Shown piece by piece: positions 1-251 of a DNA stretch of 251 bases (within the stretch, counting starts at the first letter, position 1; each line of letters starts with the position of its first letter). The DNA lies in the NCBI RefSeq assembly GCF_003334385.1, contig NZ_QOWN01000220.1. The stretch is one strand, 5' to 3'. Position numbers and translations under genes: made by a program. The notes below the pieces were generated by a model. The model saw only the letters and a list, made by a program, of their open reading frames with translations, searched no databases and was not told the origin of the DNA. Source of the stretch: Escherichia coli. Lineage in GTDB: Bacteria; Pseudomonadota; Gammaproteobacteria; Enterobacterales; Enterobacteriaceae.

Positions 1-251
1 CTTACGGCCTCTTTCACCATCTGCTCAAGCATCGGACGCACATCATCGGGGGTAATACTTTTGCCGTCCGCCGGTACAGGAATATTTGCGACCGCATCAT
101 TCACCGCCTTCTGCAATACTTCCGGATCATAGTCACGACCGTCGCGCGGAACAGGGATATGGCTTACCGCCTCCTTCACCATCTGCTCAAGCATCGGACG
201 CACATCATCGGGGGTAATACTTTTGCCGTCCGCCGGTACCGGAATATTCGC
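1..251 (-). CDS. Internal fragment (partial at both ends) of a tandem-repeat protein; possibly a phage tail-fibre-like or surface repeat protein
   Basis: Seen in sequence: the minus-strand frame with codons complementing 249-251, 246-248 ... 3-5 is open across the window (83 codons, 2 leftover bases at positions 1-2). The other two minus frames hit stops early (TGA in both). Plus frames 1 and 2 have stops (TAG at 130-132; TAA near 52-54). The translation is acidic/aliphatic/Pro-rich and protein-like. All four substitutions between the repeat copies (positions 6/168, 12/174, 78/240, 87/249) are synonymous third-position changes in this frame (Ala, Lys, Pro, Ala). Codon choice looks enterobacterial-like (CCG, GCG, GAT, CAG, AAA). 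The product name is inference only; no homology search was possible. Confidence 0.8.
1..251. repeat. Tandem direct repeat with a 162-bp period (about 1.55 copies in the window); copy segments 1-89 and 163-251
   Basis: Seen in sequence: direct alignment of 1-89 against 163-251 at an offset of 162 gives 85/89 identical bases. Mismatches are at 6 (g/c), 12 (t/c), 78 (a/c) and 87 (t/c). The period is a multiple of three (54 codons), so the repeat is in-frame and intragenic. Within one unit, 162-251 and 90-161 are degenerate half-repeats at the protein level. Confidence 0.95.

Follow-up and report, generated by a model that had tools for sequence, protein, structure and literature searches.

A gene behind the portal in Shiga-toxin-type prophages of Escherichia coli, whose tandem modules are predicted to form a fibre stalk

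The neck whiskers of phage T4 consist of fibritin (wac), a segmented alpha-helical fibre of short coiled-coil segments and loops with a small C-terminal domain, whose attachment to the neck has been shown experimentally; the head fibre of phage phi29, gp8.5, is a trimeric capsid fibre with a stalk of repeated helix-turn-helix elements. Prophages of enterohaemorrhagic Escherichia coli (EHEC) encode EPclA-D, proteins of the side-tail-fibre type whose trimeric fibres combine a C-terminal domain with an alpha-helical coiled coil and a collagen triple helix and differ in length by steps the size of a repeat; the collagen region is flanked by the domains PfN (PF08400), Pf2 (PF03406) and PfC (PF06820) (PMC3368898). 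The present analysis concerns a stretch of 251 nucleotides from E. coli (contig NZ_QOWN01000220.1; "the window" hereafter, meaning the whole stretch analysed), which falls within the repeat array of a gene, here called X, that lies behind the HK97-type portal gene of lambdoid prophages of the Shiga toxin (Stx) type. On balance, we consider it likely that the modules of X form the stalk of a head or neck fibre, probably a trimer, whose tip is a putative glycan-binding domain.

X is encoded by the same kind of EHEC lambdoid prophage as EPclA-D; however, the EPcl proteins are products of tail-fibre genes with long Gly-X-Y runs, whereas X of E. coli has one triplet per connector, alternates many short helices with such connectors, and is encoded between the portal gene and the head-tail connector gene. 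PfN, Pf2 and PfC were all absent from the Pfam matches of the 861-residue protein described below, which sets X apart from the EPcl proteins. T4 fibritin has the segmented helical design that is predicted for X, but the fibritin loops are not collagen-like and its foldon has about 30 residues, as against a carbohydrate-binding-module (CBM)-like domain in X; no match to X in sequence or fold was found, and the comparison rests on general knowledge. The head fibre gp8.5 belongs to another virus type and gene context, and likewise no match to X in sequence or fold was detected.

Only one frame is open through all 251 bases of the window, that of the minus strand starting at base 251 (minus-strand frame 1). 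Its translation reads ANIPVPADGKSITPDDVRPMLEQMVKEAVS-HIPVPRDGRDYDPEVLQKAVNDAV-ANIPVPADGKSITPDDVRPMLEQMVKEAV, the third stretch beginning ANIPVP and running to EAV, and contains modules in the order A-B-A, so that a tandem unit of 54 residues is present one and a half times. The best match to the window was found in NZ_CP058571 (locus L001), where it corresponds to about residues 550-633 of an 861-residue coding sequence. Natural boundaries taken from the full array give an A-type module of 29 residues (NIPVP...AVS) and a B-type module of 25 residues (HIPVP...AVA), which are laid out in the window as follows.

249-251, minus strand: last codon (Ala) of the preceding B-type module, from alignment to L001 positions 6001-6251
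162-248, minus strand: A-type module, 29 residues (NIPVPADGKSITPDDVRPMLEQMVKEAVS), from the translation and the full-array boundaries
213-248, minus strand: linker of the A-type module, from the AlphaFold2 model
222-245, minus strand: IPVPADGK motif, from a motif scan
162-212, minus strand: predicted 17-residue helix of the A-type module (H13-29 in the AlphaFold2 model)
87-161, minus strand: B-type module, 25 residues (HIPVPRDGRDYDPEVLQKAVNDAVA), from the translation and the full-array boundaries
126-161, minus strand: linker of the B-type module, from the AlphaFold2 model
135-158, minus strand: IPVPRDGR motif, from a motif scan
87-125, minus strand: predicted 13-residue helix of the B-type module (H42-54 in the AlphaFold2 model)
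3-86, minus strand: second A-type module, truncated at the edge of the window (28 of 29 residues, NIPVP...KEAV), belonging to the next 162-nucleotide unit, from identity at period 162
60-83, minus strand: second copy of the IPVPADGK motif, from a motif scan

An earlier, sequence-only reading of the window had proposed that the 54-residue unit consists of two diverged, homologous sub-modules, encoded by 162-251 and 90-161, which both open with IPVPxDG(K/R) and close in an AV-rich tail. The minus-strand translation bears this out, those coordinates yielding exactly the strings of 30 and 24 residues described; the local BLOSUM62 score of A against B was 50, a value reached by none of 20,000 shuffles (mean 18.7, standard deviation 4.1). 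The tails alone were borderline (999 of 20,000 shuffles, p about 0.05), and their kinship is backed at the family level by the consensus logos of 25- and 29-residue modules. The indel between the sub-modules had been placed correctly within the tail, but it measures four residues and not six, because the natural boundaries give 29 against 25 residues.

The two A copies in the window are identical at 85 of 89 positions at the 162-nucleotide period. All four differences fall on third codon positions of the minus strand and are synonymous, which argues that this frame is coding and under purifying selection. The plus-strand open reading frames (ORFs) of the window, of 23-43 residues, were without any support, and an Rfam search of either strand gave no match. 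Tandem Repeats Finder reported no repeat in the 251 nucleotides, because just 1.55 copies of the 162-nucleotide unit are present in them.

In L001 the array begins with a headless A-like tail (HVTVDEVRLVLQAMVDDAVG), continues as B-A-B-A-B-A-B and ends in a degenerate module (ALPAPQDGRDATALEILPAIDD...); the full-length protein carries about 8 modules besides the headless tail and the degenerate end. Applied to the full gene, Tandem Repeats Finder gave a unit of 162 nucleotides in 3.3 copies with a 90% match. The A copies are 95-99% identical in DNA and differ by synonymous changes only; among the B copies identity falls to 68-89%, synonymous and non-synonymous changes both being present. Across E. 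coli-type loci the number of (25, 29) pairs was one in 4 loci, two in 7, three in 19, four in 2 and five in 1. Since the A copies are near-identical and the pair number runs from 1 to 5, the 54-residue pair is the unit of expansion and contraction. The suggestion of a recent amplification of the pair therefore holds insofar as the pair was amplified as a unit, but the array is not uniformly young, because its B copies have diverged to the extent just given.

An initial word-indexed homolog search returned near-identical, mostly partial E. coli entries only; more diverse relatives came from an exhaustive search of representatives. In this HMMER search, a query of the 441 C-terminal residues gave 5,576 clusters (at 50% identity) with E<=1e-3, of which 651 had E<=1e-30, the members being mostly 250-600 residues long. 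Neither the repeats nor the C-terminal domain of X is covered by a Pfam or NCBIfam model, and a literature search found no paper on the protein; PF28083, which appears in precomputed domain lists, is a faint QatB match and was set aside as irrelevant.

In 149 representatives of this family, the spacing of the hPxPxxG motif peaked at 25 (99 cases) and 29 residues (95 cases), with minor peaks at 28 (25 cases), 32 (22) and 31 (15). The consensus is iPxPxDGKDADPexVxxmVaeAVAA for the 25-residue class, which module B of E. coli fits, and IPxPkDGKSVtxedVaPlixexVxkAVaa for the 29-residue class, which module A fits. The two classes correspond position by position up to the first conserved Val and in their final four residues, and the four extra residues of the longer class sit in the middle of the tail. 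Judging from the arrays of other members, which are all-25 (P0199, L004), all-29 (P0164, L045, L053, L054) or mixed, the division into A and B is old and runs through the whole family, and the strict alternation seen in E. coli results from amplification of a single B+A pair. A local divergence of the two modules from an ancestor of about 27 residues, as had been surmised from the window, does not agree with classes that are separate, old and spread through the family.

The modules were also modelled with AlphaFold2. Run without an alignment, the program returned a low-confidence model (predicted local distance difference test, pLDDT, 40.6) that already had one helix per module; with an alignment of 86 sequences, the mean pLDDT was 84.6. 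Each module is modelled as a non-regular linker of 12 residues followed by a helix of 17 (A) or 13 (B) residues (pLDDT 66-82), and the four-residue difference between the classes therefore amounts to about one helical turn. The tails bear helix N-cap-like signatures (D-P-E, S-x-T-x-E-D) and an amphipathic periodicity, and the linkers are the best-conserved part of the module, above the helices.

Among relatives, the 28-, 31- and 32-residue classes proved to be the 25- and 29-residue classes with one or two GxD triplets added after DG. Counting of the xxG triplets directly after hPxP in the 149 representatives gave 418 modules with one triplet, 127 with two, 40 with three, 19 with four, 10 with five, 12 with six and 9 with 7 to 21; at least five consecutive Gly-X-Y triplets were present in 47 of the 149. 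Homologs with a Pfam Collagen domain (PF01391) sit in the same slot between portal and connector genes, and the product of a Rhizobium phage homolog in this slot shows collagen-like GxDG runs. As the connector of the relatives lengthens by triplets into Gly-X-Y runs, we interpret IPVPxDG as the shortest form of a collagen-like (PxPxxG) connector. Collagen forms parallel trimers, and short and long connectors are flanked by the same alpha-helices, from which we infer that the stalk would be a parallel trimer of short three-helix bundles. Searches of PDB sequences found no solved relative of the repeat region. Many homologs also carry a short collagen-like tail, KRGRDGKDGRDGxD, beyond the C-terminal beta domain.

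This domain, the C-terminal 120 residues of X, was predicted as all-beta with pLDDT 95-98. Foldseek matched it in the PDB to CBM5/12 chitin-binding domains (2d49, 2rts, 1wvv and Serratia chitinase B) over 46-54 residues, with a root-mean-square deviation of 1.6-2.9 Å, 22-28% identity and a probability of 1.0; further matches were to proteins of the Agrobacterium phages 7-7-1 and Milano that serve as tail fibres or in receptor binding. The predicted domain shows the small fold of three beta strands and the exposed aromatics that mark CBM5/12, and it has the aromatic-rich Y..GD.V.W.G..W motif in common with that family (PF02839; the binding domains of Serratia ChiB and Streptomyces ChiC); with about 120 residues, however, the domain of X holds more than one such unit or extra strands. 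It is also carried by proteins that match tail-fibre families, and precomputed CBM_5_12 matches on homologs are faint. A Cys in GWEC and another in SLWHC are often conserved among homologs, which suggests a possible disulfide or metal site.

The window was assigned to a "phage portal protein" feature in every complete genome in which it was found. On the 861-residue protein, the HK97-family portal matches extend over residues 54-382 (PF04860) and 45-388 (TIGR01537), and portal homologs in the PDB can be aligned over residues 43-420. Membership of this family is clear for the upstream gene and, in fused alleles, for the first 420 residues, whereas the repeat region of X lies outside the portal domain and normally in another polypeptide; the residues encoded by the window are wholly outside the portal profile (about 320-343 positions).

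Gene arrangement was compared in 84 loci, of which 80 came from IMG/VR through an alignment of the C-terminal domain; the others were two annotated loci of the E. coli type, a Rhizobium phage and a metagenome contig. A single fused portal-X ORF was seen in five (L001 and four IMG/VR loci), about 10 were cut at a contig end and uninformative, and in all others portal and X were in different frames, X being a separate ORF of about 400 residues in about 90% of informative loci. In the two-gene loci the start ATG of X overlaps the portal stop (ATGA), and both this overlap and the portal C-terminus AM(L/F)RG(L/I)LxK* are conserved down to 53-66% identity. Only one of the 149 representatives contains a portal domain (P0260, a distant fused protein of 1,237 residues), and in Rhizobium phage RHph_X2_26 the homolog is a separate gene of 473 residues behind a portal of 462 residues. 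A single G in a homopolymer run separates the 861-residue ORF of L001 from the two genes of phage JLK-2012: six Gs keep the frame open, and with five the portal ends ...KAMFRGILRK*, its TGA overlapping the ATG of a 407-residue ORF that begins MTERELSIIRALGEEF. Sixteen of 22 E. coli-type junctions had five Gs (separate) and six had six Gs (fused). We conclude from these arrangements that X is a gene apart from the portal and that its portal label in the databases is wrong.

GenBank, RefSeq and PHROGs (phrog_1289, a stand-alone family) all call X a "portal protein", and in RefSeq and PHROGs the name seems to have been carried over from the few fused alleles. Because the RefSeq pipeline takes the fused form as reference, PGAP/RefSeq marks the five-G state as a "frameshifted" or "incomplete" portal pseudogene (L089 231-2977, NC_013364; L090 393-2977, NZ_CP053234). 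X falls within phrog_1289 (E 2.8e-196); its repeat region matches phrog_8767 (E 1.9e-165) from residue 455, the Met of X, and its C-terminal domain matches phrog_16748 (E 1.1e-96). Distant stand-alone homologs match these families as well.

The G run is located at 5692-5720 in L001 (about 300 nucleotides upstream of the window), at 5531-5558 in L002 and at about 1712-1760 in L090, and overlaps the likely ribosome-binding region of X. In the five-G allele, GGG can shift back by one base and pair again, and the next codon is the rare AUA, which makes this a possible -1 slippage site. Programmed -1 frameshifting as a conserved feature was rejected, because relatives lack the G run and in some of them (L046, L057) the X frame is closed by a stop directly before the ATG. 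It would be a speculative and rather improbable extension that the G5/G6 run acts as a switch, by heritable slippage or by -1 frameshifting at GGG-AUA, making the fibre free or covalently tethered to the portal vertex, and that X represents a large, unrecognised class of portal-coupled hybrid fibre in which very short three-helix bundles alternate with connectors of 1-21 triplets.

By megablast the window matched 90 phage records at 93-98% identity, nearly all of them Stx-converting or related lambdoid phages, and it was present in 1,146 of 5,426 complete E. coli genomes. The genes of L001 are ordered terminase small subunit, terminase large subunit, a 645-residue fusion of prohead protease and major capsid protein, a 73-residue ORF and the "portal", beyond which follow a head-tail connector, a head closure protein and then tail genes. 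The order terminase large subunit, protease-capsid fusion, small ORF, portal, X, connector was kept in 80 of the 81 loci with enough downstream sequence.

We propose that X comprises an N-terminal helical region, the array of 25- and 29-residue modules, the degenerate last module and the 120-residue CBM5/12-like beta domain. In each module a Pro-rich connector, hPxPxDG, would lead into an amphipathic alpha-helix 13 or 17 residues long, and three parallel chains would assemble into a segmented stalk in which short three-helix bundles alternate with collagen- or polyproline-II-like connectors, keeping the putative glycan-binding tip at a distance from the particle. The number of modules would set the length and reach of the stalk, and could be changed by unequal recombination among the near-identical 162-nucleotide units. 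We hold this structural and evolutionary description with good confidence. More tentatively, the constant place of X between the portal and connector genes, its translational coupling to the portal and an architecture of fibre plus lectin-like domain together suggest that X is attached to the head or neck, where it may aid reversible binding to surface polysaccharide.

Several observations weigh against a trimeric head or neck fibre. X of E. coli has no Pfam Collagen match and no Gly-X-Y run of triple-helix length (PF01391), its single xxG triplet per connector being too short by itself for a collagen helix, and the trimeric state is itself deduced from relatives. The Pfam match of the tip to CBM_5_12 (PF02839) is weak (E 0.012, score 16.1, residues 811-833). 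A literature search found no virion proteomics or cryo-electron microscopy that places X on a particle, and the fused alleles may give a portal-tethered form. Finally, the hydrophobic pattern of the helices, hh..hh..hh, suits an intrachain helical solenoid as well as a three-helix bundle, and a profile search of PDB sequences matched designed helical-repeat proteins (E 4e-6 to 1e-5).

The last two points favour the main structural rival, in which the array is a monomeric alpha-solenoid, each 54-residue A+B pair folding as a two-helix hairpin, as in HEAT-like or designed repeats, to build a rigid rod. We regard this as unlikely, though it deserves the most weight among the alternatives: it is the linkers and not the helices that are most conserved, a continuous series connects these linkers with long Gly-X-Y runs, which necessarily form parallel trimers, and the PDB matches are low-complexity designed repeats that may reflect composition. 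Arrays made up of 25-residue or of 29-residue modules throughout are also common, and a hairpin of a long and a short helix is thus not required.

The repeats might instead belong to the portal protein proper, extending its C-terminus within the capsid as a barrel, an internal scaffold or an appendage resembling ejection proteins. Single ORFs of 861 residues do exist and are annotated as intact portals, phrog_2271 is a "portal" family of 859 residues, the six-G fused allele recurs at E. coli-type junctions at the frequency given above, and the distant P0260 is fused too. However, separate genes with the ATGA overlap and a conserved portal terminus are the rule in close and distant relatives alike, including 148 of the 149 representatives and the Rhizobium phage homolog; the fused and two-gene states are one homopolymer G apart; and a CBM-like tip on a collagen-like stalk is what external fibres typically show. 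An internal portal extension is accordingly judged improbable.

Slightly less probable still is that X is an assembly factor, scaffold-like or a portal chaperone, whose translation is coupled to that of the portal and which is absent from mature virions. The tight ATGA coupling would fit such a role, as would the long, helical, coiled-coil-like N-terminal region of X and a capsid gene that is a protease-capsid fusion with no separate scaffold gene evident; against it, collagen repeats and a terminal CBM5/12-like domain modelled with high confidence are foreign to scaffolds, and that domain is found also on proteins matching tail-fibre families. A repetitive beta-rich shaft, as in many phage tail spikes or fibres and as the sequence-only reading had envisaged for a fibrous or shaft-forming protein, is suggested by the repetitive, phage-encoded nature of the protein and by its all-beta C-terminal domain, but is very improbable, since both AlphaFold2 runs, single-sequence and alignment-based, gave a helix in each module and no strand in the array, and the tails have the capping signatures and periodicity of helices; the fibrous part of that proposal very probably stands, given homologs with true collagen repeats in the same position.

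Some features of the neighbouring genes and of the database entries may be added. In the major capsid gene an S78 prohead protease is joined to an HK97-type capsid protein, the fusion having 645-661 residues (L001 2205-4142; L086 1172-3157); this gene lies upstream of the portal, not downstream, and is followed by the 73-residue ORF, which is conserved (phrog_829). In two distant loci, faint MptE-like matches were seen among the genes after X (L088 5294-8186; L004 2599-3252), and in L088 a hexapeptide-repeat transferase and a weak methyltransferase match replace the usual connector gene; these may be a cassette for sugar or protein modification beside the fibre gene. Most database entries for X are "partial" proteins from contigs of 1.7-6 kilobases (protein hits P0002-P0120), and per genome the window matches at a median of 7 places and up to 29, reflecting multiple prophage copies. 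The 162-nucleotide repeats, together with these copies, probably break short-read assemblies within X, and many of its entries are partial for this reason.

We infer that X is a phage fibre protein that mixes collagen-like and helical segments, and that it belongs to a large family which is unnamed or misnamed: thousands of phage and prophage proteins have no Pfam or NCBIfam model and are named "portal protein" through rare fusion alleles alone. The pseudogene flag placed on the two-gene state can make intact Stx-type prophages seem defective in a head gene. The family also offers a natural series, from the PxPxxG connector with one triplet to full collagen helices between short alpha-helices, which is useful for asking how collagen and coiled-coil segments are joined in register. 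A glycan-binding fibre in the head module of Shiga-toxin-converting siphophages, if this proves true, could affect their adsorption and host range.
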